From an uncultured delta proteobacterium (GTDB lineage: Bacteria > Desulfobacterota > RBG-13-43-22): a stretch of 64,000 nt of DNA. Position 1 is the stretch's first letter. Every line of letters starts with the position of its first letter. The position numbers and the translations under genes are program-made. Under the pieces are notes generated by a model. It made no database searches. It was given only the letters and a program-made list of their open reading frames with translations, and was not told where the DNA came from. The stretch covers positions 1 to 64,000 of the forward strand of contig CAVUPH010000014.1 of assembly GCA_963743305.1 (NCBI GenBank). The letters run 5' to 3'. Positions 39,538-61,775 of the stretch are shown piece by piece.

Positions 39538-41085
39538 TTAGACGAGCACCCTGCTATAGGTGACTCGTCCATCCCCGGGGCCATAGAAATTCTCCAGCAC
39601 GGATTCGGCAGTATAACCGCATCTTTCATAGAAAGCCCTGGTGCCGTCGTAGAGGGGCCGCTGTGAGGTCTCAATGTATATTCTTTCCCCCTTGGCTTCC
39701 CTTATCAATCGCTCGGTTTCCTTGAGGAGTATTTTGCCTAAGCCCTTTCCCTGCCTATCGGGATGAACGGCAATCCAGTAGAAATCAAAGCTCGAGTCCG
39801 TACAGGGGATAGGACCGTAGCAGGCGTATCCGACCAGACATCCGCGGATCTCTGCAAGGACAAAATGATAGCCGCTGGCCTCGCCTTTGGAAAGACGCTC
39901 AAGGACCAGTTCCTCGGCCACATCCACCTCGGCGGGATGGAAGAACCCGGTCGCCTCTGCCAGTCTTCGAATGCCCTCAGCATCTTCGGGAATTACTTCG
40001 TAACGCAATTTTATATTCCGGGATGATTCGCCTTGAGGCTTTTGAGTGCCTAATTTCCGGGGGGAGGAGCAGCTTTCAGTGATGATCTTTTCTATGGTAT
40101 CTTTATAGGGAATCCCGAATTTCATGGCCGCGGCGGCAAACCCGGCATCAGGATTAAGGCACGGGTTGCTGTTGATTTCCAGAATCCAAGGCCACCCTCC
40201 TTCATCAACGCGGAAATCAACCCTGGCATATCCCCTGAGTCCGAACAGGTTCCAGCAACGCAGGGCCAGAGATTTTAACGCCAGAAGGATCGGCTGATCA
40301 TCGTCCGTGAAATCAAAAGACCTGTTGGTATGGAGGTATTCAGAGGATTCCATGTTCCACTTGGCGCGGTAGCCGACCATGGGAATACGTCCTCGGTCTA
40401 AACCATCAAAGACAATCTCCGCCGGGGGCAGCATTCTGGGGCCGTCAGGCCCTCCCAGGATGGAAAGGTTGAACTCCCGGCCAAGGATAAAGCGTTCCCC
40501 GAAACAGGCCCCCCCAAGATCGCTCGACCGTTCCTTGAGAATATCCCACAATTCCCCTTCGGTCTTCCCGGAAACGACATTATTATCAGCGAGACCCAGT
40601 GAGCCGTGTTCCCAAAGGGATTTGATAATCCACTGCCATTTCTTGCGAGGGGCATCCGTTTTATTATGATGCCACATAGCGATAGTCCGGGGATAAGGCC
40701 CTATCCAGGCCGGAGTGGGCAGGTGGCCGAGACACATCCGCTCCTTGGCCAGGATCTTATGGGTAGTTATGAAGATCGTCTCGGTACACGAGCCGGTGTA
40801 AAGGAGGCCCATGACATCAAGGAGCCCGGGGAAAAGATGCATCAGCCGATCCTTTCCCCCGAGGGATTCCACAAGGTTGAAGACCATATCCGGCCTTAAG
40901 TCCTCAAGCCGGCCCTTTATGTCCATAAGATCAAGGCCGCAGGGTATTTGAAAGGCCTTATGACCCAGATCATCCAGGACATTTGAAATAGCCTCGGCCT
41001 GGATCAAAACATCCTGTACGTCTGTCCTGTCGTTTGGTCCGACCTCGTTATGCACAATGGCTATGCGCATTATATTATTATCCAC
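39538..41085 (-). CDS. D-Ala-D-Ala-ligase-like ATP-grasp protein fused to GNAT
   Basis: VFNLVESL, GYARVDFRVD, ILEINSNPCL, then FYWIAVHPDRQGKGLG. Confidence 0.88.
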   Translation of the reverse strand: MDNNIMRIAIVHNEVGPNDRTDVQDVLIQAEAISNVLDDLGHKAFQIPCGLDLMDIKGRLEDLRPDMVFNLVESLGGKDRLMHLFPGLLDVMGLLYTGSCTETIFITTHKILAKERMCLGHLPTPAWIGPYPRTIAMWHHNKTDAPRKKWQWIIKSLWEHGSLGLADNNVVSGKTEGELWDILKERSSDLGGACFGERFILGREFNLSILGGPDGPRMLPPAEIVFDGLDRGRIPMVGYRAKWNMESSEYLHTNRSFDFTDDDQPILLALKSLALRCWNLFGLRGYARVDFRVDEGGWPWILEINSNPCLNPDAGFAAAAMKFGIPYKDTIEKIITESCSSPRKLGTQKPQGESSRNIKLRYEVIPEDAEGIRRLAEATGFFHPAEVDVAEELVLERLSKGEASGYHFVLAEIRGCLVGYACYGPIPCTDSSFDFYWIAVHPDRQGKGLGKILLKETERLIREAKGERIYIETSQRPLYDGTRAFYERCGYTAESVLENFYGPGDGRVTYSRVLV

Positions 41086-41100
41086 ATCCTCTCTGGGTCT

Positions 41101-42087
41101 CTATTTTTTAATCCTCTTTGAAGCGGAGACCAGTATCCTTTCAATGAGCGCCTGATAGCTTAGGCCCACTCCCTTGGAGATAATGGGCAGGTCGGAATGA
41201 TCAGGGTGCAGTCCGGCCAGGGGATTTACCTCCAGGAAATAGGGATTTCCCCCATCATCACAGCGGATATCCACGCGACCTCCGTCCCTGCAACCCAGGA
41301 CGCGCCAGGCCTTGAGAGCAACCGCTTCGGACCTTTTAACCACTGAAGCCTCCGAGTTCTTTTTAATAGTATAACTCACCAGCTCTTCGGAATTCTCCTT
41401 GTTTACATAGGAATAGGCGCCCTGCTCCGCCTTCGGCAGCAGATGAATCTCCATCGTGCCCACGACCGTTGCCTCGGAATCCGTGCCTGTTAGGCCGACG
41501 GTAAATTCCCGGCCGGGAAGGTATCGTTCCACAAGAACAGGCTGGCTAAAGGCCTTACGCATAGCTTCGCAGGCCGGTCCAAGGTCCTCGGTCCGTCTTA
41601 TGATGGAATCCGGAGTTATCCCCTTTCCTGTGCCCTCCGCCACCGGCTTAATAAAAAAAGGGGGTTGAAAATTTATATCGCCTTCTTCTATTCTTCCTTC
41701 GAATACCCAAAAATCCGATGTGGGAATTCCGGCGTCCCGGATTACCCGTTTCGTCATGCTCTTATGAAGAGTCAGACTCATGACCAGGGGATCGGAAAAG
41801 GTGTACGGTATATCGTAGATATCAAGGACAGCCGGGACCTGGGCCTCGCGGCCTATCCCCTTCAGCCCCTCGGCTATATTGAAGACCAAATCCCAGCGGG
41901 CCCCCCGGGCCAGACGCTCAATCAGCCCGCGGGCATTGCCGATGCGTTCGGTATGGTGACCCAAGTGCCCGAGACTGTCCTCAATACCCTCAATGGTCTC
42001 TTCCCGGTCAAACTCGGCTGTCTCCAATTTGCTGTAACCTTGCGCCAGATAGTCGGACCTTAGATCATAGGTCAAACCGATTTTCAT
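41101..42087 (-). CDS. D-Ala-D-Ala-ligase-like ATP-grasp protein
   Basis: VFNIAEG, KPVAEGTGKGI, YLPGREFTVG, FLEVNPLAGL. Confidence 0.9.
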   Translation of the reverse strand: MKIGLTYDLRSDYLAQGYSKLETAEFDREETIEGIEDSLGHLGHHTERIGNARGLIERLARGARWDLVFNIAEGLKGIGREAQVPAVLDIYDIPYTFSDPLVMSLTLHKSMTKRVIRDAGIPTSDFWVFEGRIEEGDINFQPPFFIKPVAEGTGKGITPDSIIRRTEDLGPACEAMRKAFSQPVLVERYLPGREFTVGLTGTDSEATVVGTMEIHLLPKAEQGAYSYVNKENSEELVSYTIKKNSEASVVKRSEAVALKAWRVLGCRDGGRVDIRCDDGGNPYFLEVNPLAGLHPDHSDLPIISKGVGLSYQALIERILVSASKRIKK

Positions 42088-42139
42088 GGATTATTCTCTC
42101 CGCGGGATCAGTCCTTAAGACCTGTTAACGGGAAGTCTA

Positions 42140-43516
42140 TTAATAATTTTCCTGGGTCTCGGCAGGGGGTCTGGGGATGAAAACACTGGGAGCGGCCTCT
42201 GCGGAACTGTAAGCCGGATACTTATAAAGGACGCCTTTATAATTGCGAAGGACCAGATGGTCTCCATCCCGACCTTCCCGATACTCGGGCATAATCGGGA
42301 TCTTTCCGCCTCCTCCGGGGGCATCGATCACGTAACTGGGAATGGCATATCCGCTGGTAAATCCCCTTAATCCCCTGATAATCTCCAGACCCTTTTCAAC
42401 AGGTGTGCGGAAATGGGAAGACCCGGATATGGGATCGCACTGATAGAGGTAATAGGGTCTCACCCGCATCTTTAAAAGGTTATGGAAAAGGTCCCTCATG
42501 GTTTCCACCTTATCGTTGATCCCCGACAGGAGAACGGTCTGGGAACCAAGAGGGATGCCCGCGTCGGCCAGCAGGGAACAGGCCCTGTAGGCCTCGGGAG
42601 TGCATTCCTCCGGGTGGATAAAATGAAGGCTCATATAGAGCGGATGATGTCTCCGAAGCATGCAGACAAGCTGAGGAGTAACTCGTTGCGGCAGGACCGC
42701 CGGCACTTTTGTGCCGATACGCACTATTTCGACATGAGGAATTTTGCGGAGGTTGGTCAGTATCCAGTTCAGACGATCATCGCTCAAAGTAAGGGGGTCG
42801 CCGCCGGAGATAAGGATATCCCTGATCCCCGGATTGGCCCTGATGTAGTCAAAGGCCCTTTCAAGGCGGGACCTTGTTGGATGGAGAGACCCATGACCGA
42901 CCACTCTGGATCGTGTGCAATATCGGCAATAGGTGGAACAGAAATCCAGGGCAACCAATAGGACCCTATCGGGATATCTGTGCACCAGACCGGGCACAGG
43001 GCTTTGATGTTCCTCGCCGAGGGGATCATCATTTTCTCCCGGCGCAGCGATAAATTCATCGATGGTCGGGACAACGCTTCGACGCAAAGGGGAAGCCGCA
43101 ATATCAGGAGAGATGAGACTCATATAATATGGCGTTATCCCTACGGGGAGTTTGGGGGTAAACCTTTCCAGGGCAGCTTGCTCTGCGATTGAAAGGGTTA
43201 AAAACCTTTTTAAGCGGACGACCGTCTGGATGCGGTTGGTGATTTGCCAATGCCAATCGTTCCATTGTTTATCCGCTACCTCAGGATAAAATTGTCGTCT
43301 AAAGCTTTTGGTTTCTATTGATGTACGGGGTCTTTTCTTGCCGGTAAAAGGGATAAGAATCGCCGGATGGCGCTGGGGAATCCGGACGTCATGAGTCCAG
43401 GATATGGGGATCTCTAATGGCAAGCTGCTACTCGGAGGTTCCTCATCCTTATCAAGCAGGATCTCCTGCTGCTCCTGACCTCTAAAGCACGGCATTAGTG
43501 AACTTCCTTCCTCCAT
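42140..43516 (-). CDS. KamA-family radical SAM aminomutase
   Basis: WNDWHWQ, VHRYPDRV, CSTYCRYC, SGGDPL, DAPGGGGKIP (PLP lysine). Confidence 0.93.
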   Translation of the reverse strand: MEEGSSLMPCFRGQEQQEILLDKDEEPPSSSLPLEIPISWTHDVRIPQRHPAILIPFTGKKRPRTSIETKSFRRQFYPEVADKQWNDWHWQITNRIQTVVRLKRFLTLSIAEQAALERFTPKLPVGITPYYMSLISPDIAASPLRRSVVPTIDEFIAAPGENDDPLGEEHQSPVPGLVHRYPDRVLLVALDFCSTYCRYCTRSRVVGHGSLHPTRSRLERAFDYIRANPGIRDILISGGDPLTLSDDRLNWILTNLRKIPHVEIVRIGTKVPAVLPQRVTPQLVCMLRRHHPLYMSLHFIHPEECTPEAYRACSLLADAGIPLGSQTVLLSGINDKVETMRDLFHNLLKMRVRPYYLYQCDPISGSSHFRTPVEKGLEIIRGLRGFTSGYAIPSYVIDAPGGGGKIPIMPEYREGRDGDHLVLRNYKGVLYKYPAYSSAEAAPSVFIPRPPAETQENY

Positions 43517-43762: not shown

Positions 43763-43844
43763 AACTGTTTTTTCTCTTGACTCCGGATTGGTCATATTTT
43801 AAATTGTTTGGCATTTAAGACTGTCATAAAATAGGTTTTTGTGT

Positions 43845-43896
43845 AGCGATGGAGTTCGCTTAACCGTCCCGCGGATTCGGGACTGATAACTCCTGC
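43845..43896 (+). ncRNA. Fluoride (crcB) riboswitch 1
   Basis: AGCGAUGGAGUUCGCU-UAACCG-UCCC..GGGA-CUGAUAACUCCUGC; pseudoknot GGAGU/ACUCC. Confidence 0.9.
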
Positions 43897-43928
43897 CTAA
43901 TGAAATTTTTGGCAGGAGTTTTTTATTT
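43888..43928 (+). terminator. Riboswitch 1 intrinsic terminator
   Basis: aactcctgcc...ggcaggagtt followed by a T-tract; overlaps the aptamer 3' strand. Confidence 0.85.
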
Positions 43929-43985
43929 CTTGGGTGACCCCAATGACCTCTGCTCCCGCCAAAATAAGATGATGGGAGGACAAAA

Positions 43986-45746
43986 ATGGTTCTCGATAAA
44001 TACGCGCAACTTAAAAATGAACTCGTAACCTGCATCAACTCCCTGGTGACCATCGAAAGTGACACCAGTGGCCTCTATGAAGAACTCAGAGAAAAAATCC
44101 AAAATAATGTCTTTAACCTCGTTGTTCTCGGACAGTTCAAAAGGGGGAAGACCAGCCTGATCAATGCCCTCCTGGGGGCAGAAATATTACCCACCGCGAT
44201 TGTCCCTCTCACCTCTATTGCCACGATTCTCAAATACGGCGAAACCGTAAATATCAATGTGTATTTCAATGACGGCCGGGTGATGGACATTGAACCGGCA
44301 ACCCTCCCCCAATATGTAACGGAAAAAGGAAATCCCAGAAATGAGAAAGAGGTGCAGGAAGTCATCATCGCTTATCCTTCGACCTATCTAAAAGACGGGG
44401 TCCGGTTAATCGACACCCCCGGCGTCGGATCGGTCTATGAACATAATACCGATGTGGCTTATCATTATTTACCCAAGTCGGATGCCGCCCTGTTTCTCCT
44501 CTCGGTAGATCAGCCGGTGAGCAAGGCCGAGCTTGAATTTTTGAAAGATGTCCAGGAATTCTCAAACAGGATATTCTTTCTCCAGAACAAGGCCGATTAT
44601 GTGGGCGCCGAAGACCTGGCCGAATCCATTTCCTTCTCGAAGAAAATTATTGAGGAGTGCCTGGGCAACGAAGTAAAGATATTCCCTCTTTCCGCCAAAT
44701 GGGCACTCGAAGGCAAATTGTCCGGAACAAAGGAATTTCTGGAGAAAAGTTTTCTTCCCGAATTTGAACGAGTCCTGAATACCTTTCTGATGCAGGAAAA
44801 GGGCCGGGTCCTGCTCCTTTCCGTGACGAATAATCTTCTGCGGCTGCTCGCTCAGGCCCGGTTCAAGCTTGATCTGGAGATGAAATCGTTCTCGACGCCT
44901 TTGGAGGAATTGAAGGAAAAGATAAAGATCTTCGAGAATAAAAAGAAAGAGATCCTGGTCGAAAAAGACGACTTCTACCTCCTGCTGGATGGCGCCACGA
45001 AAAATATTATCAAGAACGTCCTGGATGAAGACACGAAGGCCTTCAGGCAGGAGTTGCTTCTTAAGGTGTCGGAAAACATTGAAACCCGCTACCCGGAGTA
45101 TTCGGGCCTGTCCCTGAAGGAGATTCAGCGGCGTCTTGAAGAACAGATTGTCGCCGAAGTCAAACAGGCCTTTATGGCCTGGCGCGGCCTGGAGGATGAG
45201 AAACTGTCAAAAACCTTTGAGACGTCCTGCCAGAGGTTTATTACCAAGATCGACGAGACCGTGGATTCCCTCCTCAATTTCTCAGCCGACCTCTTCGCCG
45301 TTCCCTTCGATATCGTCCAGGCCGAGGCCATTTGGTCATCGAAGTCGAGGTTTTACTATAAATTCAAGGAGCAGCCGGGGGGGATTGAGATCGTGGCCTC
45401 ATCGCTGACCTTGTTGCTGCCGAAATTCATCGGCGAAAAGATCTTGCTGAAAAAGATGAAGGAATACCTCGAGGGAGTAATAGACAGGCAGTCCGCCAGG
45501 ATTGGTTCTGACTTTGAAGAAAGACTGGATAAGAGTAAGCTGGCTTTCAGGTGGGAGATGCTACAGAGGATTGAGGCCACCATGGAAGGGATATCCCAGG
45601 CTATCGAAACGGGGATGAGCCGGAAATTGCAGGGCGAAAAGGCCGTGGAGGAACAAAAGGCTTTCCTCCTGAAAAAGGAAAAGAGAATGGGTGAAATCAA
45701 GGAAAAATTGATGTGGATACGGGAAAATTTATCCAGTAAAATTTGA
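43986..45746 (+). CDS. Bacterial dynamin-like GTPase
   Basis: GQFKRGKTS (G1), PLTS (G2), DTPG (G3), NKAD (G4), long helical C-terminus. Confidence 0.92.
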   Translation: MVLDKYAQLKNELVTCINSLVTIESDTSGLYEELREKIQNNVFNLVVLGQFKRGKTSLINALLGAEILPTAIVPLTSIATILKYGETVNINVYFNDGRVMDIEPATLPQYVTEKGNPRNEKEVQEVIIAYPSTYLKDGVRLIDTPGVGSVYEHNTDVAYHYLPKSDAALFLLSVDQPVSKAELEFLKDVQEFSNRIFFLQNKADYVGAEDLAESISFSKKIIEECLGNEVKIFPLSAKWALEGKLSGTKEFLEKSFLPEFERVLNTFLMQEKGRVLLLSVTNNLLRLLAQARFKLDLEMKSFSTPLEELKEKIKIFENKKKEILVEKDDFYLLLDGATKNIIKNVLDEDTKAFRQELLLKVSENIETRYPEYSGLSLKEIQRRLEEQIVAEVKQAFMAWRGLEDEKLSKTFETSCQRFITKIDETVDSLLNFSADLFAVPFDIVQAEAIWSSKSRFYYKFKEQPGGIEIVASSLTLLLPKFIGEKILLKKMKEYLEGVIDRQSARIGSDFEERLDKSKLAFRWEMLQRIEATMEGISQAIETGMSRKLQGEKAVEEQKAFLLKKEKRMGEIKEKLMWIRENLSSKI

Positions 45747-45887
45747 TGGTTTCGAAAAAAGTCCCCAACGCTGTCATTGCGAGGAGTGAAGCGACGAAGC
45801 AATCCCCAAGAATCAGGCAATTACCATGGTGGGGATTGCTTCGCTTCGCTCGCAATGACAGGTTTTTGGACTTTTGCGAGGTTATCA
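45746..45887. mobile_element. Non-autonomous palindromic (RPE/MITE-like) element
   Basis: Outer IR gatggtttcgaaaaaagtcc / ggacttttgcgaggttatc; inner tgtcattgcgag..gaagcaatcccc / ggggattgcttcg..ctcgcaatgaca. Confidence 0.75.
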
Positions 45888-45916
45888 AAACTGAACCCCT
45901 TTGAGGGAGGTCTGCC

Positions 45917-46378
45917 ATGCCGGAAGAAAAATGCGTTTTTTGTAGTATTGCCGCCGGACAGGCGCCGGCCCATATCGTCCAGGAGGATGGTCTGTCCCTG
46001 GCCTTGCTGGATATAAATCCTTTGGCTCAGGGCCACTGCCTGATCATTCCCAGAAGGCATGTGCCCTGGTGGCATGACCTGACGAAAAAAGAAACCGACA
46101 GCCTCTTTCGAATGGCCCAAGAAGTTGCCGGAAAAATCATGGAAACCTTCCATCCGGATTTCGTTTGCATGTACGCCCGGGGGAGAAGGATCCCCCATAC
46201 CCATATATTTTTAGTCCCCACCTATTCGGGTGATCCCCTGGACCGCTTTTTCAATGCCCTGGAAGGGTTCCAGGAGACGCCGACGGAGTTGAGTCGGCTC
46301 AAACGGCCGGACCGGATGCGGGCGACAGCGGAACGTTTGCGGAAATCGGTCTGTCTCCGGGCAGGTGAAGGGGAATAG
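45917..46378 (+). CDS. HIT-family nucleotide hydrolase (atypical HxHxF motif)
   Basis: CVFC, LDINPLAQGHCLIIPRRH, IPHTHIFLVP. Confidence 0.88.
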   Translation: MPEEKCVFCSIAAGQAPAHIVQEDGLSLALLDINPLAQGHCLIIPRRHVPWWHDLTKKETDSLFRMAQEVAGKIMETFHPDFVCMYARGRRIPHTHIFLVPTYSGDPLDRFFNALEGFQETPTELSRLKRPDRMRATAERLRKSVCLRAGEGE

Positions 46379-46770
46379 GCGATAAACCAAGGACCTATTC
46401 AGGCCAATAGATTGAAATTGCTAAATAATTTATGCATAATCCCCGCCGTTGGGCCTTTGAGGTCGGACCCCACAAAAAGCTTGCCCCCTTGGCGGATGGG
46501 GAGTAAACTACCGCCATTTTAGGTGACCAGGAAGCCTGTGGATAGATGGAATTTTAGTTGAAGGTATCGCAATGAATGACCCGGATGGTAGTGATAGACC
46601 GTCTGAATAAAACCGAAAGAACGAATTCCACCGAATTGGAAGACCCTGTACCTCAACGACCAGAGGTTGCCTTTGGAATAATGAACGGTCGGCGTTCCTA
46701 CCGAGCTTAACCCGCCGGTTCGCCCCCGGCCGCCTTCTCCTTCCTGCCGCGGCCTTAATGGAGGTGAACC

Positions 46771-46926
46771 ATGCAAATCAAGATTTCACTTCTCGTTCCC
46801 GTGTTCCAAGTAATGCCGGCGATCGGGACCGTCAACTCCTATCAAAAATTCCATGAGGCGGCACGCCCCGCCGTGATGGCCGAACGGCTTTCCACCTTAG
46901 CCGGGGAATCGAAGGTTGCGCCATGA
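46771..46926 (+). CDS. 51-aa upstream ORF translationally coupled to mgtA
   Basis: GGAGGT RBS at 46760, ATG 46771, TGA overlapping the mgtA ATG (ATGA). Confidence 0.5.
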   Translation: MQIKISLLVPVFQVMPAIGTVNSYQKFHEAARPAVMAERLSTLAGESKVAP

Positions 46927-49586
46927 AAAAGCGATTCCTTGCGCGATTCTCGAAGGGCTCCGGTATCCAATCGCCCGCAACCCAAACCTTGAACGGGCAT
47001 GAACGGCAATTGGTGGAGCTTTGCACGATCCCCATCCAGGAAGCGCTTAGGCACGCTCAAGACGACCCTTCAGGGACTCAAGGCCGAAGAAGCGGATCAT
47101 CGACTGGACGAGTACGGCCCCAACGAGTTGTCTCATCTCAAGCGCCTGGGTTTCTGGGCCGACATGGCTCACCGCCTGAAGAGTCCTCTGGTCGTTCAGC
47201 TCTTGGTGATCGCACTGGTCTCCGGGGTCATCGGCGAGTTGAAGTCAACCGCCATCGTCTCCGCGATGATCGTGTTGAGCGTCGGGTTGTCCTACATTCT
47301 CGACCGCCGCTCCAGCCGTACCGTCGAATCCCTCGGCAAGCGCGTTCAGTCCCGCACCTTCGTCTTGCGGGATGGCGTGGAGACCGAGGTCAGGATATCC
47401 GAAATCGTTCCGGGCGACATCGTGCTCCTCCAGGCCGGCTCCATCGTTCCGGCGGATCTGCGGTTGATCGCCGCCAAGGATTTTTTCGTCAGCGAGTCGG
47501 CCCTGACCGGGGAATCCATGCCGGTCGAAAAAACGAGTGCAAGCGCCGACTCATCCATCCAGTCGGCCATGGATCTGCCAAACGCCTGTTTTTTCGGGAC
47601 CTCCGTTACCAGCGGCACGGCCCGGGGCGTGGTCGTGAACACCGGCACCCGCACCCTGTTTGGAGCCATTTCGGAGCGGCTGACCGAAAAGCGGGAGGAA
47701 ACCAGCTTCGACCGGGGCGTGCGTTCCTTCACCTGGCTGATGATCCGGTTCATGGTGGTGATGGTCTGCGCGGTGTTCTTCATCGTGGGCATGACCAAGG
47801 GCAACTGGCTGGAGGCGCTGCTGTTCGGCCTGTCCATTGCCGTCGGCCTCACCCCGGAAATGCTGCCGATGATCGTCACCGTCAACCTGGCCAAGGGCGC
47901 GCTGACCATGGCCAAGAAAAAGGTCATCGTCAAACGGCTGCCGTCGATCCAGAACTTCGGAGCCATCGACATCCTGTGCACGGACAAGACCGGGACCCTG
48001 ACCCAGGACCGGGTCGTTCTGGAGCGCCATGTCGATATCGTCGGACACACCAGCGAAGAGGTCCTGAACTACGCCTATCTCAACAGCTACTTCCAGACCG
48101 GCCTGCGCAACCTGATCGACCGGGCGGTTCTCGAGTCATGCCGACCTGCATCCGGAGCAGGACTGCCGGCTTGTGGATGAACTGCCCTTTGATTTTCAGC
48201 GCCGCCGCATGTCCGTGGTGGTGGACTATGAAGAGGACCATGTCCTGATCTGCAAAGGCGCGGTGGAGGAGATCTACGCCTGTTGCAGCCATTATCAGAT
48301 CGAGGACGAGGTCTATCCGCTGATCGACATGATCCGTGCCGACCTGTTCGAAGAGGTCGAGAAGCTCAATCGCGACGGTTTCCGGGTCCTCGGCATCGCT
48401 TATCGGGAGTTTCCCCGGTCGACAAGACCGTTTTCACGGTCGATGATGAAAGCCAACTCATCCTGCTCGGCTATATCGCCTTCTTCGATCCGCCCAAAGT
48501 CTCCGCCACGGAGGCGATTGAGCTTCTGGCAAAAGCCGGAGTGAAGGTCAAGGTTCTGACCGGCGACAACGGCCTGGTGACCGAAAAGGTCTGCCGGGAT
48601 GTGGGACTCGATGCGGAACGGATCGTCACGGGAGCGGAACTCTCACGGCTTTCCCCGAGCGATTTCTCGAAAACGGTGCAGGACAGCAATGTCTTCGTCA
48701 AGCTCTCTCCGGCGCAAAAAGAGCAGATTGTGAAGGAACTGCGCGAACAACGGCCACGTGGTGGGGTTCATGGGCGACGGCATCAACGACGCGCCGGCGC
48801 TGAAGGCGGCGGATGTCGGCATTTCGGTGGATTCCGCGGTCGACGTGGCCAAGGAAGCCGCGGACATCGTGCTCCTGGAAAAGAGCCTCCTGGTCCTGGA
48901 AGAGGGCATCATGGAAGGCCGGAGGGTCTTCGCCAATATCGTCAAATACATCCGCATGGGCGCCAGCTCCAATTTCGGCAACATGTTCAGCGTGGTCGGG
49001 GCGAGCTACCTGCTGCCTTTCCTTCCCATGCAGCCGGTGCAGATTCTCACGAACAACCTGCTCTACGACTTCTCGCAGACCGGAATTCCCACCGACAATG
49101 TGGATGAGGAACTGATCGCCAAGCCCCTCAAATGGAATATCGACAACATCAAGCGCTTCATGGTCTTCATCGGGCCGATCAGCTCCATCTTCGACTACGC
49201 CACCTTCGCCCTGATGTGGTTCTTTTTCCATTGCAGCGCCTTTCTCGATCCCGCGACCGGCGCCATGCAAAAGGAATCGCTGGCGCGGCTCTTTCAGACC
49301 GGATGGTTCGTGGAGTCGCTGCTGACCCAGACATTGATCGTCCATATCATCAGGACCAGGAGGATCCCCTTCTTCGGAAGCCGGGCCTCCTTGCCACATG
49401 ACTATGACGACCCTGATCATCATGGCCATCGGGGCCTGGTTGCCGTATTCGCCTTTCGCGGCCGATTTGGGGATGGTTCCGCTGCCCGCGGTCTACTGGG
49501 CCTGGATAGCGGCTTTTCTGGTGACATACGCCGTGCTGACACACGTGGTGAAGACCTGGTTCTTCAAGCGTTTTGGAGGTGATTGA
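46923..49586 (+). CDS. mgtA: Mg2+-translocating P-type ATPase (about five frameshifts)
   Basis: [87 protein letters not shown]. Confidence 0.92.
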
Positions 49587-49588
49587 TC

Positions 49589-50393
49589 ATGGATACTATT
49601 TTGGATGCCCTTCAGGAGGGCAGATTGTTCGAGCTGCCTGAAAACGACAAGGCCCATGCCTTGCAGTTTCTGGCGCACATCATCGAAGCCTTTCCGGAGA
49701 CCCCCGCCGGAACCGATGTGGTCGGACTTGTCATGAAAAGAGAAGAGGCGACCAACACCGCCATCGGCAAGGGCTGGGCCTGTCCGCATGCGCGGGTGCC
49801 CTATGACGAGGATCTCATGTGCGTGATCGGATGGAGTCCGACGGGAATCGATTACGGCGCGCCGGACGGCAAGCCCGTCTCGCTGGTCGTCATGTACCTG
49901 GTTCCGGACAACCAGCGGAATCATTACCTGCGCGAGGTATCGATGCTGGCCAAGGCGCTTGAAACCTATCCCGACCTTGAAAAGTTTAGTGAAGCCGGAA
50001 ACCTGGACGATGTCCGCAACTACCTGCTCGACCTGATTGACGCCACCAAGGGAACTGTCGGTCCGGATGCCCGGGCCAAGATGATCCGGCTGCAAACCAA
50101 GGCGGCTCTTGAAACATTCCCCCTTCGCGACCTTTCGAATCTGATTGTGGAGCCCGTCACGCTTGTCGCCGGTCCGGGAATAAAGCACATTGCTCTCACC
50201 CAGAATGCCGAGTCTTGCGGAATGGCTCGACTCCGCGAGCGATCTGATCGAAAAGATGGAAACCGACGGCGTGTACCAGAACGGCGGATGGCGCGTCTTG
50301 CGCCGGGGCGCGTTACCTATCAAGGCGGGACGGGTTGCCTATGATTGCCTGGCGATCCGGATGGCTTCAGGGAACTCGGTCACTATTAAATAA
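49589..50393 (+). CDS. PTS EIIA(Ntr/Fru)-like domain protein with C-terminal extension (frameshift ~50215)
   Basis: REEATNTAIGKGWACPHAR, GIDYGAPDGKPV. Confidence 0.82.
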
Positions 50394-50435
50394 CCGAATA
50401 AAGGTATTTCCCGGCGTTTTACCTTTTGCCCTTTA

Positions 50436-52278: not shown

Positions 52279-52920
52279 ATGAAATGGCTTTTTTTTTCCT
52301 ATAGTCTCCCGACGGAACCGTCCAAGGCCAGAGTGTATACCTGGAGGCAGTTAAAAAAACTGGGAGCCGTAAATTACCAATCGGTCTGGGTCCTGCCGTA
52401 TTCCAAGGAATGGCTCGAAGACCTCACGAAGCTTATGGAGTCCATTGGAAGCCGCCGAGGGGAAAGCCTGCTGATTGAGGGAAAAAGCTTGACCAAGGAG
52501 CAAGAGGATCGAATCAATAAGGCCTTTATCGATTCACGAAATGAGGAATACGGGGAATTGATCGAAAAGTGTGAAGATTATTTCAAGGAGATCGATTTTG
52601 AAATCGAGAGGCAAAATTTCATCTTTGCCGAGGTGGAGGAAAATGAGGAGGAACTTGAAAAACTTAAACTGTGGTTTAAAAAGGTGGCCAAGCGGGATGT
52701 CCTGGATGTGCCGCTACGCAAGGTAGCAGTTGAGAAATTAATAGACTGCGAAAAGCGTTTTGAGGAATTTTCCCAAAAGGTTTTCGAACATGTTCAATTG
52801 AAAAATACGGAGAAAAAGGGGCCCACCCCAAAGAAGGCCTTGAGGAAAAAGAAAGATTCAGGAACGCTATTTTCCTGCGGGCTGAAAGGGAAGCCGAGGG
52901 AGGACGAACTTTTAAAATAA
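52279..52920 (+). CDS. ChrB N-terminal-domain transcriptional regulator
   Basis: YSLPTEPSKARVYTWRQLKKLGAV, RNEEYGE, EENEEELEKLKLW. Confidence 0.8.
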   Translation: MKWLFFSYSLPTEPSKARVYTWRQLKKLGAVNYQSVWVLPYSKEWLEDLTKLMESIGSRRGESLLIEGKSLTKEQEDRINKAFIDSRNEEYGELIEKCEDYFKEIDFEIERQNFIFAEVEENEEELEKLKLWFKKVAKRDVLDVPLRKVAVEKLIDCEKRFEEFSQKVFEHVQLKNTEKKGPTPKKALRKKKDSGTLFSCGLKGKPREDELLK

Positions 52921-53042
52921 TCGAAGGCGAACCATTGTCAACCAGTTTTGCCGAAGATTTATATCAAGCACTTTGATCTCTGGGGAGAAGACAAACCTTC
53001 CGCCAATGCCCAGCCTGTGGAAAAAAACGATGAGGAGGAGGT

Positions 53043-54243
53043 ATGGCAGATTTTAATTTGATCCGTGAATTAACCGTAACCGCCGATACCAAGATCGTGC
53101 TTCTTGTCATGGACGGTCTTGGCGGGGTGCCGAATGCGCCGGGCGGACCCACCGAACTGGAGTCCGCCCGCACACCGAACCTTGACCGTCTGGCGGTCAA
53201 AAGCATGCTGGGCTCTCAATCCCCATCGGGCACGGTATCACCCCAGGCTCCGGACCGGGGCACCTGGCCCTGTTCGGCTACGACCCGCTCAAGTTTCTCA
53301 TCGGCCGGGGTGCTGGAGGCGCTCGGCATCGGTTTTGAGCTGACGCCGGACGACGTGGCCGCGCGGGGCAATTTCTGCACGGTGGATGACAAGCTGCTCA
53401 TCACCGACCGCCGCGCCGGACGCATTCCGACGAAAAAATGCGCCGAGCTGGTGGTTAAGCTGCGGGCGATCCGGCTGCCGCAGGTGGAGATCTTCGTCGA
53501 GCCGGTTCAGGACTACCGGTTTGCGCTGATCTTCCGTGGCAAGAGCCGTCCGCCGCCCTGACCGACACCGATCCGCAAAAGACCGGGCTTCCGCCGCTTC
53601 AGGTCAGGCCCGGGCCGAGGAGGCGCGCAAGACGGCCGAGATGGTCAATTGCTGGGTTGCGGCCGCCCGCGAGCTGCTTAAAGACGAGCAGCCGGCCAAC
53701 ATGGTGACGCTGCGGGGCTGGGCCAAGGAACCCGGTCTTCCCAAGTTCGACGACATCTACCGTCTCAAGGCCGAGCCATCGCCGTGTACCCGATGTACAA
53801 GGGCCTGGCCAGCTGGTCGGCATGGACGTGGTACCGGACTGCACAGTCTGGAGGAGCAGATCGAGGCGCTGAAGGCGAACTGGGAGGATTACGACTTCTT
53901 CTTCGTCCACTATCAAGTACACCGACAGCCGGGGCGAAGACGGCGACTTCGCGGCCAAGGCCGCCGAAATCGAGAAGGTGGACGCCGCGATCCCGCGTTT
54001 CCTGGATCTCAAGCCGGACGTGTTCATCGTGACCGGCGACCACAGCACGCCGGCCGTTTGGAAGGCGCATTCCTGGCACCCCGTGCCGACCCTGCTCTAC
54101 GCTCCGCATCTGGCCGGCCGCAACGACGTGAAGGGATTCGGGGAGACCGAATGCCTGCGGGGGCGCTCGGCCAGTTCCAGGCCATGGACCTGATGCCGCT
54201 GGCGTTAGCCTATGCCGGGCGCATGGCCAAGTTCGGCGCTTAG
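53043..54243 (+). CDS. apgM: 2,3-BPG-independent phosphoglycerate mutase, ApgM type (multiple frameshifts)
   Basis: [50 protein letters not shown]. Confidence 0.88.
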
Positions 54244-54288
54244 CCCTGCAGCGCCTTTCAGGCCGTCCTCCACTTGAATCCCTTCTCG

Positions 54289-56128
54289 TCAGCGCCTTGG
54301 GCCGCCGGCCAATCCTCCAACCTCAGCCATCTCAGGCATAATGTCGGCCAGGTCACGGCGGATCGCCTCGGCAGTCCTCCGGGCTCGCTTCCGCTGACCC
54401 GAGAAGCCGGTCCAACTGCGCCCGATACGCATGGGCGTACGAATCGAACCCCGTTTGAATCTCGCCGGTGACCCTCCGTACCCAGGCCTCGAGGAGCCGG
54501 CGATACGTTCGAAAGGCTTCCGAAACCGCCGGGCCGAACCGGTGCCGGAGTCGGCGTTCCACCCGCGCCCTTACCAGCGACGCAGCGATTGACACGAATG
54601 GTGAGCGCTTGTAGGACGGTATCTGCCCGGCGAAATCAAGTTGCGGCATTTCTCGGAGGCCCGAGACAAGCTCTTCCTCCTGAGGCATCTCAGTCATATT
54701 CAGTTCCCGGGCGGCCCGCTGAAGGGCAACGGTCAGCTCCTTGGCGAGGCCATTAAGCCTCACGAACAACTCCGTGGCGGCGCCGGCGGCAGTTTCCGCT
54801 ACGGAGGCGGTCAACAGGTCCGACTCCACTTTTTGCCCCTGGCGCCAGCGCGCAACTATTCGGGACGCGGCTTCCCGCAGTGCGGTCGATGCCAGGTTCT
54901 CCACTTCTTCGGCTGCCCGAAGACAGGCCGAAATTTCTTCAGGTATCCGGCCGGCCGACCGCCTCAACTCCTTTTCCACCTGTTTTAATTTTTCGGCATC
55001 CGTCGGACGGATTCCCTCCACACGATCCAGCCTGGACCGCAGCGCCGCCTCAACCGATTCCCGCAGGGCCGCAATTTTCCGCCGCACCGACTCACCCGCA
55101 AGCTGTTGGTGCCGTTGACAAAGCGGCTCGATCTGTTCTTTGAACCAGGCCTCCAATAAGGCCGCGGAATCTCCGACGATGCTGACCGGCTGGACATTCA
55201 GGGTCAGGCCCAACCGCCCCTGGATCTGCTCGGAAATATAAGTCCGTGCCGACTCACGGTCCTCCCGTGTCAGGAGGTCTGCCTTGCTGAGCAAGACCGA
55301 AGCCGGCACTCCCGCCTCCACCAGGGCCTGAATGGTCGCCAGGTCCTCTTCATCGAGCGTCGAGCCGGCGTCGACCAACACCATGCCGAGATCGCACTGC
55401 GGGAGGTAGGCCCGGGTCTCGTCGGCCCCGGAAGTCGCCAAAGAACCGAGACCCGGAGTGTCCACGAACACCATCCCATCACTGAGTCTGGCGCTAGGCA
55501 GCTCTGCTATAATCTTGGTGACGCCCTTGGAGTTACCCGGATTGCGTTGCTCGGTAACGAAATCCGGCAAGGCGGCGACTTCGAAGCGCTCAACTCGGCG
55601 GTCTGTGAAAGTGACCGTCAACCTCGGTTCCGGTCCGAAAACCAGCCGGGTCGGCACCGCCGTGATCGGATTCACGCCGACCGGAAGCACGGCCACGTGC
55701 AGCATCTGATTCAACAACGACGATTTTCCCGAACTCACCCGGCCGAAGACGGCTATTTCGAAGCGCTGGGTCTCCAGGCGATCCAGAATCATCGTAAGCT
55801 TGGGGCGAAACTCGACCAAACCCTGCGCGGAAATGATTCTCTCGATCTTATGAAGCAGATCCGCATCGTCCCCGTCCCATTGGAGTCTCTCGCTGCGGGT
55901 GCCGAGGTCCTGCCCGAGGCCTTGCACCAGATAGGCGTCGAGTGTGTCGACCAGCGCCTGGAGTTCGTTGACCAGGCCGTTGAGGTCGGCGATCGCGGAT
56001 TCCGGAACTTCTCCGTAGCCCCTCATGTATTTAGGGCCTATCTCGGTCAGGGCGATTCCGACAAATGATAGGTTATCCACATACTCGACACTGCTGATAA
56101 GACGACGTTGCTGGGATTCATTCAACAT
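54289..56128 (-). CDS. Second dynamin-like GTPase (frameshift near the 3' end)
   Basis: GRVSSGKSS, PITA, DTPGLGS, SKAD. Confidence 0.88.
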
Positions 56129-56400
56129 TTTTCAATTCCATATTAAAAAATGGGTAGCCATTCTTGTTGCCGGCAATATGATTCAAAGCCCGAAGGTAAG
56201 CATCTTTTTCATCCTTATTAATCAGGTCCCTTCGTAAGGCATTACGTTTTATGGCGTAGTTTTCCAGATCCTCCATTGCATATTCTTCTTGGACCTCTGG
56301 GTCCTGGGAAAACGTATTCATCCAATGCGCATAATAATCAAGCGCTCGTTGGATAAGATGGGTGCACACCGGACACCCGCGGCTTTGCAGATCTTGAACG
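56118..56400 (-). pseudogene. C-terminal remnant of a CxxC-containing hypothetical protein
   Basis: GCPVCTHL...; 5' end lost at an abrupt junction with the truncated MFS. Confidence 0.5.
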
Positions 56401-56406
56401 ATCTCA

Positions 56407-56949
56407 CTAAACCCTAGCCGGGTGGCCGGCTATCCAACTCAGCAAACCAAACGCGGTTAAAGGCCCCAGGATGGCACCGAGCGTATCGCTGGCCCGGTGA
56501 AATCCAAAGGCCTTCCCCAGGTCTTTGGGAGCAACCGATTCGGCCAGCAAGGCATCGCGGAGAGGACTGCGTATGCCCCGGCCGAACCAGCCCACTACCC
56601 GTCCCAGGAGGATTAGGGGCCAGGCCAAGGCGAAGGCAAAAACGGCCTTGGCGATGGCGGTAAGGGTATAGCCGATAACGGTCCACGTCTTGCGATGTCC
56701 AATTTTGTCACTGTGATAACCGGCCCCAATTTTGACAAAGCTGGAGAGGGCATCGGCTACCCCTTCGATAAAGCCCAAGGCGGCCGCCGAAGCCCCTATG
56801 GCCCGCATGAATTGAGGCAAAACAGCAGTGGCCATTTCATGACAAAAATCACTCAGGAGGCTGGTCAGACCAATGGCCAGGACATTACGATTGAACCATC
56901 GGTTGAGAGTTGTAGACTCCTTTTCCGGGCTTTGGGTTTTTTCATTCAT
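56407..56949 (-). pseudogene. Truncated MFS transporter (N-terminal half)
   Basis: TSLLSDFCHEM, GRGIRSPLRDALLA, GFHRASDTLGAILGP; stops at 180 aa. Confidence 0.8.
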
Positions 56950-56971
56950 TTTAAGGTCACCAGTCTCCGAT

Positions 56972-57570
56972 TCAGCCCTGCCTCAGGAGGGCAAGTAAAA
57001 TTTTACCTTTTCCTATTATCCATATCCTAATTTTAAACCAACTCACTATTATGACCAGGGCACAAATCCCGCCCAAGAAAATGCCGCCCAGGACATCCAG
57101 AGGATAATGTTCCCCCACGTAAACCCTGGAATATCCTACGACTAAGGCCATCAATAGGAAAAGAGGGGTACCACAGTCGATAAGAAAAAGAAAGGAAAAT
57201 TGCGGCGGCAAAACAATTGGCCACATGATTGGAAGGGAAGGACAGAGAGCGTGGACAGGGCCAAAAAGTATGGATGCCGGACAAAACATGACAAGGACGG
57301 ATGCGGCCGAAGAGGGGCTTGATAAAAAAACTGTTTGAGTAATCAGTCGTCCCCACTAACAGGGCCAGCAAGACGGCTGTTATCTTTCCTTTCGGACCTC
57401 CTAAAAAAAACAACAGTAACCAAAGGACCAGCAAAGGAATCCGCCAGTAATTAAATTCAGTAATGATGGGCATGACCCAGTCAAAGAATGGATTGCGGCT
57501 GGCCTTGGTTGATCCAGTAAAATATCCAGATATCCCGAGCTAAAAGGCTATTGAAGAGATGTTCCATCAT
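56972..57570 (-). CDS. PAP2-family membrane phosphatase (frameshifted)
   Basis: KPLFGRIRP, SFPSNH, SRVYVGEHYPLDV. Confidence 0.85.
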
Positions 57571-57631: not shown

Positions 57632-58382
57632 TTATTTATTGTTCCGATCAGATATAAAGGGATAAAATCGCGATTCCTCCTGATTAACCGAATCAGAAGG
57701 AGAAACCCGCGAAAAAAATAGCTTCCACCCGCTGCACCAGCCTACGGCGCTGATCAAGGCCGCTTTATCCTCTTCGGTTTCCGTCCCCTGGAATTCCATG
57801 CGGAAAGAGTGGGCAGTCAGACAATATGATGAAGAATTTCCTTTACAAAAGCCTGATGGCGGGGAAAATCATTTACGATCCCTGAGCGTATATCCTCCAT
57901 AAGATGGGGCCGGCATCTTTGAGCCGATTCATTTCCCAAACACCGCCCGCAAACGGCCTTCTGCCAGTATTTCTTGGTGTCCAGGGCAATTTTTGAAGCT
58001 CCGAGAGGTCCCGGCCTCTTCTGATGACATCCGCTTGGGCCTTCCCTATCGAGTTAGGTCCAAAACCTTCCTCACACATCAAACAGGGGCCCTGGTTCCG
58101 AAGGCGTCTAATCGTCCGGAGACGGGGCAGGGACCCCTGGAAATTAAGGGCCGACCACGCCTGCTCCATGAGATCCAGATAAAGGATGGCCGGTCCATGC
58201 ATCCATCCTCGGCGAAAAGAGGCATCCATGGAGATAAAGCCCCAGGCGTGGCGTCCACAGAAGCCCCAGGCCTTTTTAAGCCGCTCCCGTGTACGGGAGG
58301 ACATGATACTCCCCTGGATAAACCACCAGAGGAAGTGGATTTCACCTTCCGATAATTGAAAATCCTTTCTTTCAATGAGCAC
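57632..58382 (-). CDS. Cys/His-rich hypothetical protein (GFCxxHAW motif, DUF6062-like), frameshifted
   Basis: WGFCGRHAW, CLMC; C-terminal AALISAVGWCSGW in another frame. Confidence 0.6.
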
Positions 58383-58392
58383 GGATATTTTC

Positions 58393-58876
58393 TTACTCTG
58401 TGTCGTTCACCTTCATCGTGTTTAAAATCTCTCGGGCGGCCTCTCGAACCGATTCGACCGGATCCGTAGCAGGCGGCGGATACGGATTCCAGGGCCGGTG
58501 CCCCCCCCAATTTGCCCAGGGCCTGAACGGCTTCTTTACGGACCAGGAACGAGGGGTGCCGCACGAAATCCTGGAGTTGTGGAAGGGAAGCCGGATCTTG
58601 GATTTCTCCTAAGGCCCAAACAATGTCCGGAAGCAAATAAATGTCCCGGGTCTCCTGCGCCGCCTGCATTAAAGCCGGAAGGGCTTGCTTGGCCTTTAAC
58701 AAACCCAGTATGCGGGCCGCCCGATGGCGGGTCTCCGGCTCCGGGTGCTTCAAGGAAAGGGCCAGGCGCTCCGCATAGCCCATCGCTTTCCATCGGCTAA
58801 GATCCTCCCGGCAACGGGGACAGGTTTCAAAGGAATCAGAGGATTCGAACCAGCAGAACGGGCAATAATAAGTCAT
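58393..58876 (-). CDS. Zinc-ribbon + HEAT-repeat protein (frameshift ~58485)
   Basis: CPFC..CPRC; AARILG, WALGEI, VRKEAVQALGKLG. Confidence 0.78.
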
Positions 58877-58888: not shown

Positions 58889-59713
58889 CTAACTTTTTTG
58901 AAAATCTTCGAGAACCTTCAAGGTGTTGATGGCCATGCAGGTATATTCCAGAGTTGCAATCCCCAACAAATGAGACCTTCTGAACCCAAATCCTTTGGTT
59001 TGACAATCAAGGACAAATTTCAAGATGGCCTCCTGGTACTTTGGTCGATAACCTGCCAGTTCAGAGCCTAATAAACCAAAATAAATATCCTCTAAAAAGG
59101 CCAATGTAGACATAGGGACATTGGTAAAACCGAATTCTTCTTGTTCACACAGAAAAATAAATTCAAAAAAGCCTGATGGGTCTGTGAGATAGCCCAGATC
59201 CTTTAGTATCCTTAAAGCCCAATAGGTCTCCCGCAAGTTGGAGATTTCTATACTAAAGCCAAAATCTTTTCGTTGGAACCTAAGGACATAATCCCGCCCT
59301 CTTTTCTTTAACGATTCCTCCATGGGGCACCCGATTAGTTCGATCAGTTCTGTCAGATAGCTCAAAGATTCAAGGCCTGATTCTTGGCCGGAAAGGGTTT
59401 TTTCAAAATTCCCTAATAGGGATCGAAACAGCTCCGGAGTGTTGATTTCTGTTTTGAAGAGTTTAAGGACTCGCAAGCCATAATAAGTCCCCCAGAGGCC
59501 GGGCAGGCCATCAGCATGGTCAAAGAATCGTTGAACGAAGGCAACGGTTTTGAAGGGATTAGGAGGTAAAGCGGATAATAATGATAGCGTCCGGGTGGCA
59601 AAAAAGGTATCGGCCAGATTGGGCTCTTCCAGCCCATAGAAACAGTATCCTCCTTCCCGGCATTCCAGGGAATGGATATATTCGATCACTTTCAAGGGCG
59701 TCACCCGGTCCAT
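58889..59713 (-). CDS. Prenyltransferase/squalene-oxidase-repeat (alpha-alpha toroid) protein
   Basis: Repeats EGGY..TFFA..L, DFGF..TYWA..L, FGFT, FGFR..TCMA. Confidence 0.7.
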   Translation of the reverse strand: MDRVTPLKVIEYIHSLECREGGYCFYGLEEPNLADTFFATRTLSLLSALPPNPFKTVAFVQRFFDHADGLPGLWGTYYGLRVLKLFKTEINTPELFRSLLGNFEKTLSGQESGLESLSYLTELIELIGCPMEESLKKRGRDYVLRFQRKDFGFSIEISNLRETYWALRILKDLGYLTDPSGFFEFIFLCEQEEFGFTNVPMSTLAFLEDIYFGLLGSELAGYRPKYQEAILKFVLDCQTKGFGFRRSHLLGIATLEYTCMAINTLKVLEDFQKS

Positions 59714-59963
59714 AAGCCCTCCATGGAGCCGGGGATCATTCTTTGTCGAAGGTAAGCCAGGGGAGGGCATTCCATCCTCACAGATTATTTCCCCGACCTT
59801 TCCCGGGTTGCCCCCCTGATTTGAAGAAGCCCCGAATCACCCGAAAAGGGCATTCCTTCGGTTCGAATTCACTGTTGGCCCTTTACTCCCCATAGGAATT
59901 CCCGTTTCCAAAATTATATGCAGGCCATCCTTCTTTATCGAAGTTTCTACCAGTCCCAAAAAT

Positions 59964-59999
59964 AAAAAACTTCTACCCCAATTATTTTGGAGTAGAAGT
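59964..59999 (-). terminator. Riboswitch 2 intrinsic terminator
   Basis: ACUUCUACUCCA...UGGGGUAGAAGU-UUUUU on the minus strand. Confidence 0.85.
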
Positions 60000-60061
60000 C
60001 ATGAGCTTCCTTTAAACCTACCGGTAATTAAAAGAAAGCGGTTCCGGTGAACTTCATCACC
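59992..60061 (-). ncRNA. Fluoride (crcB) riboswitch 2
   Basis: GGUGAUGAAGUUCACC-GGAACCGC-(long stem)-GCUCAUGACUUCUAC. Confidence 0.9.
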
Positions 60062-60122
60062 TTTTTATAATCTAAAAACCATCGTCGTCCGATATCATCG
60101 TTCAAAAAAATTTTCCCCGCTG

Positions 60123-60564: not shown

Positions 60565-60582
60565 AGAACACCTCCTATTCTT

Positions 60583-61725: not shown

Positions 61726-61775
61726 TCAAAACCTCCATTACAAGGAAGCATCCTCACAATGAGCCTTCTTCGGCA

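Follow-up and report, generated by a model that had tools for sequence, protein, structure and literature searches.

What is a fluoride-sensing RNA doing at the head of a gene for a dynamin-like GTPase? The question is raised by a 64,000-nucleotide stretch of DNA (hereafter the window: positions 1 to 64,000 of contig CAVUPH010000014.1, assembly GCA_963743305.1) from an uncultured delta proteobacterium of the Desulfobacterota lineage RBG-13-43-22, in which a fluoride riboswitch, RS1, directly precedes an intact gene for one of the bacterial dynamin-like proteins (BDLPs), Dyn1. BDLPs are widespread, yet for the majority neither a trigger nor a physiological role is known. The genome is metagenome-assembled (4.9 Mb in 43 contigs, 90% complete, 5.7% contamination). 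The answer that we favour, with a probability of about 0.6, is that a fluoride-activated (ON) riboswitch controls Dyn1 as part of a conserved, extended fluoride regulon, and that Dyn1 remodels or reseals the membrane as a homo-oligomer.

The riboswitch and leader of Dyn1

The leader and gene comprise the following features.

43777-43805, + strand: candidate sigma-70-like promoter, TTGACT-N17-TAAATT (consensus scan, 9 of 12 matches)
43836-43902, + strand: fluoride riboswitch aptamer RS1, family RF01734 (cmscan; found again by whole-genome search)
43888-43928, + strand: intrinsic terminator, 10-bp stem and U-tract (minimum free energy and centroid folds, sequence)
43974-43980, + strand: ribosome-binding site GGGAGGA (sequence; 5 nt ahead of the ATG at 43986)
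43986-45746, + strand: Dyn1, intact bacterial dynamin-like GTPase of 586 amino acids (open reading frame, Pfam Dynamin_N)

RS1 matches the Rfam covariance model over positions 1-64 of 64 with a score of 43.5 bits (E 9e-9), which is 9.5 bits over the gathering threshold of 34. Both strands of its pseudoknot are intact (GGAGU in the P1 loop and ACUCC on the 3′ side), and alignment to the RF01734 consensus finds GAUGGAGUUC and CUGAUAACUCCU present and the conserved core nucleotides kept; the GAUAAC variant of RS1 is common to many dynamin-linked copies of the aptamer. The terminator hairpin pairs 43888-43897 with 43911-43920 and is followed by UUUUUAUUU (fold z -3.4). Its 5′ arm (43888-43897) is the 3′ pseudoknot strand of RS1, and by this arrangement of the sequence the terminator is the expression platform of an ON switch, competing with the aptamer. 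A preliminary description of this DNA, made from the letters alone, had noted the aptamer, a terminator overlapping its 3′ strand, and downstream of them a ribosome-binding site and an intact 586-amino-acid dynamin-like open reading frame with motifs G1 to G4; all of these are confirmed. The promoter that it named is present as a sequence, but six such sites occur in the region where 2.6 are expected in shuffles, and with its 9 of 12 consensus matches the call is weak evidence.

The whole genome contains only three matches to RF01734, all of them in the window. A degenerate aptamer pattern matched the same three Rfam sites in the window and no others, and gave no match in 100 shuffles.

Conservation of the riboswitch-dynamin linkage

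Homologues of Dyn1 are encoded by ten of 60 related genomes, in which riboswitches were counted above the RF01734 cut-off. In seven of the ten (G002, G019, G020, G035, G044, G046 and G049), a same-strand RF01734 copy lies within 460 nt upstream of the dynamin gene. The aptamer of G012 is 1.37 kb upstream with an ISAZ013-type DDE transposase between, that of G054 is 2.8 kb upstream on the same strand, and the dynamin gene of G015 is cut by a contig end. The 60 genomes have 33 riboswitches, distributed over 23 of them, and eight of the 33 front a dynamin gene. The transposase insertion of G012 (locus L013 at 243-1319, the same as L026) removed the first eight codons of the dynamin gene, a natural uncoupling of switch and gene.

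Species-representative genomes were surveyed by a pattern and tblastn scan that gave 574 relatives of Dyn1, and the best 80 loci were scanned at the Rfam gathering threshold, with gene starts estimated from alignment offsets. In 49 of these best 80 of 574, a same-strand riboswitch lies at most 350 nt upstream of the estimated start; the direct pairs come from several phyla and place the riboswitch 20-270 nt from the dynamin start codon. In seven more loci the riboswitch stands 1.3-2.8 kb upstream, separated from the dynamin by other genes of the same string; five of the seven strings are composed of riboswitch, Na+/H+ antiporter, universal stress protein (USP; missing in L058) and dynamin. No riboswitch was found at 23 loci, and one has no upstream sequence. 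The preliminary description had claimed direct riboswitch control of a dynamin-like GTPase and had asked for homologues to be checked for upstream crcB motifs, taking lack of enrichment as evidence against the claim. The homologues are massively enriched, the pairing being direct in 49 of 79 assessable loci and within the operon in 7 more. Among the 50 direct loci (the window included), 46 have a terminator just past the aptamer, with a hairpin of -7 kcal/mol or better ahead of a U-run, and in most of the 46 the ACUCCUAC strand of the aptamer is the 5′ arm of that hairpin. The density of riboswitches in the genome under study is about one per 1.6 Mb; therefore, chance adjacency would be of the order of 1 in 10,000.

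On a tree of 70 proteins (FastTree; quick, unrooted and with some long branches), the riboswitch state is found in all of the deep branches, which are those of KSB1, Bacillota, Desulfobacterales and Nitrospirota; at least five changes are required, and Dyn1 of the window falls within the Nitrospirota group beside its 87% relative. The proteins that lack a riboswitch make up a single clade of 15 Syntrophobacteraceae, with five others scattered over the tree. A custom covariance model from 11 aptamers was dropped because MAFFT broke the P1 pairing, and the Rfam model was used instead. On these comparisons, the Dyn1 clade appears to belong, as a conserved component, to an extended fluoride regulon of anaerobic Nitrospirota, Desulfobacterota, Bacillota and others. 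Two carriers are cultured according to their record titles, Desulfacinum hydrothermale DSM 13146 (L076) and Fervidicola ferrireducens Y170 (L096).

The Dyn1 protein

Dyn1 matches Pfam Dynamin_N with 101.6 bits (E 6e-29, cut-off 27) and has all of the GTPase motifs: G1 (GQFKRGKT, residues 49-56), G2 (T76), G3 (DTPG, 143-146) and G4 (NKAD, 201-204). GxFKRGK, T76, DTPG and NKxD are invariant in an alignment with 70 homologues, the nearest of which is 87% identical over its full length. The solved structures nearest in sequence are the Nostoc BDLP (2j68, 2.9e-27), IniA (2.5e-16) and the Campylobacter DLP pair. The 70-homologue alignment served to build an AlphaFold2 model (predicted local distance difference test, pLDDT, 84.3; predicted template-modelling score, pTM, 0.76), which Foldseek matched at full length to 2j68, 2j69 and 6j72 (IniA), with TM scores of 0.70, 0.67 and 0.61 respectively and a probability of 1.00 for all. 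Helical neck and trunk bundles fold back onto the GTPase domain in the predicted model, as in BDLP and IniA. Its sequence indicates that Dyn1 belongs to the BDLP/IniA type and is catalytically intact.

Dyn1 has no transmembrane helix. The tip of its trunk (about residues 438-480) was modelled as a loop and is the sole poorly modelled part (pLDDT below 50 at 453-471). Aromatic and basic residues are conserved there as a patch with the consensus FYYKFK, and in this region F456 and P479 are nearly invariant. By analogy with the Nostoc protein, this tip is likely to be the counterpart of the BDLP membrane paddle.

Neighbouring genes

To compare the neighbours of dynamin genes, open reading frames (ORFs) were called greedily across the window and all 80 loci and grouped by BLASTP, and one representative of each cluster was annotated by Pfam. 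The recurrent families were as follows.

Na_H_Exchanger: 22 ORFs
Usp: 18 ORFs
MFS_1: 16 ORFs
H_PPase: 13 ORFs
CRCB: 12 ORFs
Tandem DUF190: 12 ORFs
HEAT_2: 9 ORFs
HAD: 7 ORFs
HIT: 6 ORFs
Enolase: 6 ORFs

These recurrent neighbours are classical fluoride genes. Typical strings are riboswitch, antiporter, USP, riboswitch, dynamin and then enolase, MFS, HEAT or HAD; or riboswitch, CrcB, DUF190, riboswitch, dynamin. No single partner is conserved beside the dynamin gene across the 80 loci. In the riboswitch-less clade, the next gene after the dynamin encodes an H+-pyrophosphatase or a GlnD-like protein; in the riboswitch-less Syntrophobacteraceae loci L074, L078, L079, L082, L085-L088, L095 and L099, the dynamin homologue is directly followed by a membrane H+-pyrophosphatase. 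In the Bacillota loci L096 and L097, the riboswitch-dynamin unit stands behind the pyrophosphatase, CrcB and DUF190 genes and is followed by genes of the MoxR-AAA and DUF58 families.

Two features follow Dyn1 in the window.

45771-45862, + strand: near-perfect 92-nt palindromic hairpin, then GUUUUUGG (RNA fold -70.5 kcal/mol, z -8.2)
45917-46378, + strand: HIT-family (histidine triad) protein of 153 amino acids (Pfam HIT 9e-19)

The hairpin is present once in the window, between Dyn1 and the HIT gene, and may be the terminator or 3′ end of the Dyn1 transcript, a stabiliser of the mRNA or a palindromic repeat element. A HIT gene also follows the dynamin gene in L025, L026 and L030, and lies inside a riboswitch-led string in L061, but co-transcription of the HIT gene with Dyn1 is uncertain because the large hairpin with its U-run separates the two. 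Upstream of the Dyn1 promoter, a divergent group of genes (39538-43516, - strand) encodes a radical SAM protein like lysine-2,3-aminomutase, an ATP-grasp protein like D-Ala-D-Ala ligase and an ATP-grasp-GNAT fusion; these may synthesise a compatible solute derived from beta-lysine, or a peptide.

The fluoride island and its genome

The genome's fluoride riboswitches, all three of them, are clustered in 18 kb and make up a fluoride island in which RS3 and RS2 are in tandem.

61841-61905, - strand: fluoride riboswitch RS3 (46.7 bits), with a terminator at 61798-61785
60583-61738, - strand: Na+/H+ exchanger gene behind RS3, in several frames (three Na_H_Exchanger fragments)
60123-60564, - strand: USP gene in two frames (Usp profile positions 1-69 and 71-139 in overlapping ORFs)
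59986-60070, - strand: fluoride riboswitch RS2 (45.9 bits), with a 14-bp terminator at 60000-59968
58889-59770, - strand: prenyltransferase-like alpha-alpha-toroid protein, first gene behind RS2 (Pfam)
58079-58876, - strand: HEAT-repeat protein, second gene behind RS2 (Pfam)

The exchanger fragments cover positions 25-77, 101-157 and 223-326 of the Na_H_Exchanger profile, and the cluster of intact orthologues has 22 members in related loci. The HEAT cluster occurs in nine loci, and the pair of prenyltransferase-like and HEAT genes is found in L061 also. Besides the exchanger and the USP, an MgtA-like P-type ATPase (46999-49582), a phosphoglycerate mutase and an MFS gene of the window are split between frames, the split regions being 46999-49582, 53043-54243, 56407-57030 and 60123-61738, with breaks often at homopolymer runs. 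Such splits suggest indel errors in the assembly more than true pseudogenes. Both Dyn1 and the second dynamin-like ORF, Dyn2, are unbroken. The guanine-plus-cytosine (GC) content reaches 57-65% in two blocks (46500-50400 and 53000-56070) against a background of 45-52%. The second block, which stops within the 5′ end of Dyn2, may be mosaic DNA that was acquired, or a chimeric joint. Alone between the blocks at 52279-52920 on the + strand is a gene of 42% GC with a ChrB_N domain (chromate-resistance regulator family). The wrong-frame ORF at 46923-48248, the ORF at 57873-58382 and a 152-amino-acid ORF of L019 had no match in Pfam or NCBIfam.

Neither the Pfam model nor a CrcB protein query from L040 found crcB in the genome; at 90% completeness, such a miss is not proof of absence. 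The sole CLC of the genome (L010, contig C37) has the motif GKEGP and matches only models of the ClcA/ClcB type, far below their cut-offs; from its motifs we take it to be of a non-fluoride type. Thus no recognisable fluoride exporter was found in this genome despite its three fluoride riboswitches.

The second dynamin-like gene

The preliminary description placed a second dynamin distally in the operon of RS2, at 54289-56128, and suggested it as the partner of Dyn1. The gene is present, but the true ORF is shorter.

54353-56128, - strand: Dyn2, second dynamin-like GTPase (Dynamin_N 2e-23)

The nearest relatives of Dyn2 are proteins of about 680-690 amino acids with 83-65% identity (83% to a 690-residue metagenome protein), and the named ones belong to Bryobacteraceae or other Acidobacteria. 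Compared with its nearest homologue, Dyn2 lacks about 67 N-terminal residues (positions 30-96). It lies in a block of 62-65% GC (53.0-56.0 kb) versus 45-50% around it, and at about 56070 its 5′ end meets low-GC sequence to which it is unrelated. Three contigs of relatives (public run X1) diverge at 56066-56073, and none of the contigs of four runs over 55300-57100 bridges the junction. The junction may be genuine, through recombination or acquisition of DNA, or a chimera of the assembly. An 83-amino-acid, low-GC ORF with a CxxC motif (56118-56369, - strand; no match in Pfam or NCBIfam) overlaps the start of Dyn2 by ATGTTGAATGA; it follows the MFS gene, which ends abruptly at 56407.

No orthologue of Dyn2 was found in the 60 relatives, where the matches were Dyn1-type genes at about 30% identity, or at E of 1e-45 or less in 400 genomes of the phylum. 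On sequence grounds, Dyn2 is a dynamin of a different, Acidobacteria-like subfamily. The pattern search of the window gave only the three known sites and no degenerate aptamer before Dyn2. Six Dyn2-type loci were found in metagenome contigs (L116-L121, of which L117 and L118 are near-identical), and in L116, L117, L118 and L120 a fluoride riboswitch precedes the Dyn2-type gene by 15-148 nt. L121 has no riboswitch and L119 no upstream sequence, so that four of the five assessable loci are riboswitch-led, which indicates that a second, distant BDLP subfamily is also linked to fluoride. A second dynamin gene is present in the flanks of one of the 80 Dyn1-type loci (L102) and of none of the six Dyn2-type loci. 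The suggestion that the two dynamins are partners, or a conserved pair, is not upheld by these counts or by the foreign composition, different subfamily and missing orthologues of Dyn2.

Interpretation

A mechanism may be proposed as follows. At low fluoride, the terminator, which shares the strand ACUCCUGCC with the aptamer, would form and halt transcription ahead of Dyn1. With fluoride bound, the pseudoknot would keep the ACUCCUGCC strand, the terminator would not form and Dyn1 mRNA would be made; the HIT gene may or may not join the transcript. The induced protein would use its tip loop, with the conserved aromatic and basic residues (around 440-480, FYYKFK), to bind the cytoplasmic membrane, as the analogy with BDLP suggests, would self-assemble on GTP, and would remodel or reseal the membrane during fluoride stress in the manner proposed for IniA and DynA, which are stress-induced. 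Dyn1 would work as a homo-oligomer, without Dyn2.

Several points weigh against this interpretation. The promoter call is weak (9 of 12). Of the 79 assessable homologues, 23 are riboswitch-less, including the whole 15-member clade of Syntrophobacteraceae; therefore, fluoride control is not obligatory for the Dyn1 family. The loci scanned were the 80 closest relatives among 574, which is no random draw, and genomes that are related do not count as independent. Membrane binding by Dyn1 is an argument from analogy with BDLP and IniA, since confidence in the model is low at the tip loop. The many frameshifts of the metagenome assembly make local sequence errors possible, although Dyn1 itself is intact. 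That fluoride injures the membranes of these organisms is a supposition outside the sequence evidence.

One might suppose that RS1 regulates nothing, being a chance match or the relic of a deleted exporter gene, and the failure to find crcB or an obvious fluoride-type CLC in the 90%-complete genome is in keeping with a lost exporter. This supposition has hardly any probability left: it is refuted by the comparative counts, the juxtaposition recurring in 49 of 79 assessable loci of several phyla with a matched terminator in 46 of 50, and the score of RS1 is 9.5 bits above gathering. Since the pairing is conserved in homologues, RS1 is not such a relic. A heterotypic pair of Dyn1 and Dyn2, co-induced by fluoride, is highly improbable. 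Their genes are within 12 kb of each other, Dyn2 shares its strand with the RS2 operon and no strong terminator was called between the two, both subfamilies are riboswitch-associated in other loci, and paired BDLPs are known (Campylobacter DLP1/2, PDB 5owv); against these stand the junction at about 56070 and the missing residues 30-96, the high-GC block, the Acidobacteria-like relatives, the lack of any orthologue in the 60 relatives and 400 phylum genomes, and the rarity of a second dynamin in either set of loci (1 of 80 and 0 of 6).

With Mg2+ or trace Al3+, fluoride forms GDP-bound mimics of the transition state, and metal fluorides trap the G domains of the dynamin superfamily. Therefore, fluoride might induce Dyn1 merely in compensation, the cell making more of a fluoride-sensitive GTPase trapped by GDP-MgF3 or GDP-AlF4, just as it would make more enolase or pyrophosphatase. 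The neighbourhoods do contain additional fluoride-sensitive enzymes (enolase at six loci, H+-pyrophosphatase in 13 ORFs), and the overproduction logic for enolase and pyrophosphatase is described by Stockbridge and Wackett 2024 (PMC11139923). We nevertheless consider compensation unlikely: only Dyn1 and the foreign Dyn2 match Dynamin_N strongly in this genome, which has no housekeeping BDLP, and 79 of the 80 Dyn1-type loci have no second dynamin gene within the 3-kb flanks (a count of flanks, not of whole genomes). With no other BDLP to back up, Dyn1 would not be an extra copy for compensation. A non-membrane role, in which Dyn1 would assemble or control co-encoded transporters (Na+/H+ antiporter, CrcB or MFS) or be linked to the nucleoid like CrfC of Escherichia coli, is somewhat less probable still. 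An MFS gene comes directly after the dynamin in L034, L050, L051, L070 and L071, and the antiporter-USP pair comes ahead of it in many loci, but no single transporter partner is kept across loci; the N-terminal match to the CrfC model (3e-6) has 25.8 bits versus a cut-off of 1146; and the full-length fold is that of BDLP and IniA, with trunk and tip loop.

The favoured reading, fluoride-induced membrane remodelling or resealing by a Dyn1 homo-oligomer, has implications for both fields that it joins. Through the RNA sensor, fluoride would be defined as the inducer of one BDLP clade and, it appears, of a second and distant clade, so that the question of what BDLPs are for becomes directly approachable with NaF. 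To exporters, fluoride-sensitive enzymes and the homeostasis of pH and phosphate, the fluoride regulon would add a membrane-remodelling machine, and by implication fluoride stress would act on the cell envelope of anaerobes, sulfate reducers and syntrophs among them. A broader hypothesis, which we hold to be doubtful, is that membrane remodelling by dynamins (resealing, vesicle shedding or compartmentalisation) is an exporter-independent arm of fluoride resistance; on this view the dynamin may be a main line of defence in this genome, where neither crcB nor a fluoride-type CLC was found. In its bolder form, the hypothesis holds that GDP-MgF3 or GDP-AlF4 locks the induced GTPase in the assembled state, with the same ion switching on the gene and triggering the protein.

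Comparison with known systems

A full-text search found no literature that links dynamins to fluoride riboswitches, the gene-association data of Baker et al. 2012 lying outside its coverage. The accessible parts of Stockbridge and Wackett 2024 (PMC11139923), Sherlock and Breaker 2020 (PMC7266159) and Weinberg 2010 (PMC2864571) mention no dynamin or GTPase among crcB-motif genes. By titles and abstracts, the literature on crcB together with dynamin is eukaryotic cell biology only, and that on bacterial dynamin together with fluoride, among the matches listed, concerns structures and reagents. With the riboswitch standing directly before the gene here and in the majority of related genomes, this suggests that the Dyn1-type GTPase is part of the microbial response to fluoride stress not yet described in print.

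Among BDLPs of known structure, the best match to Dyn1 is that of Nostoc punctiforme (2j68/2j69/2w6d; 2.9e-27, TM 0.67-0.70 over about 680 aligned columns), with which it shares GTPase domain, neck and trunk. Dyn1 falls about 100 residues short of it, with 18% identity, and has a low-confidence loop with the conserved FYYKFK patch in place of the paddle; the regulation and physiological role of the two proteins are, as far as known, unrelated. IniA of the Mycobacterium iniBAC operon is induced by isoniazid and has membrane-fission activity. It resembles Dyn1 in BDLP fold and size (E 2.5e-16 to 6j72, TM 0.61; about 17% identity), and both are induced by chemical stress rather than constitutive, as predicted for Dyn1. 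In contrast, IniA is under a protein regulator of cell-wall stress whereas Dyn1 is under an RNA sensor of fluoride, and Dyn1 lacks an IniB or IniC partner. Paired or tandem BDLP systems include DLP1/DLP2, IniA/IniC, LeoB/LeoC and the fused DynA. By the sequence comparisons made here, Dyn1 and Dyn2 do not appear to be such a system, in which two paralogues are encoded and conserved together.

The FRM operon of Enterobacter cloacae is, like the loci described here, a multi-gene, riboswitch-linked fluoride response that goes past exporters, but the portion of PMC5533749 available describes no dynamin in it. The canonical RF01734 units, which control crcB/Fluc, eriC-F/CLC-F, Na+/H+ antiporters, pyrophosphatase, enolase, HAD or formate hydrogen lyase, have the same class of aptamer and the same terminator-based ON design as RS1, the difference being that the controlled gene here encodes a dynamin-like GTPase; and in related loci the dynamin unit adjoins riboswitch-led crcB-DUF190 or antiporter-USP units of the canonical kind.

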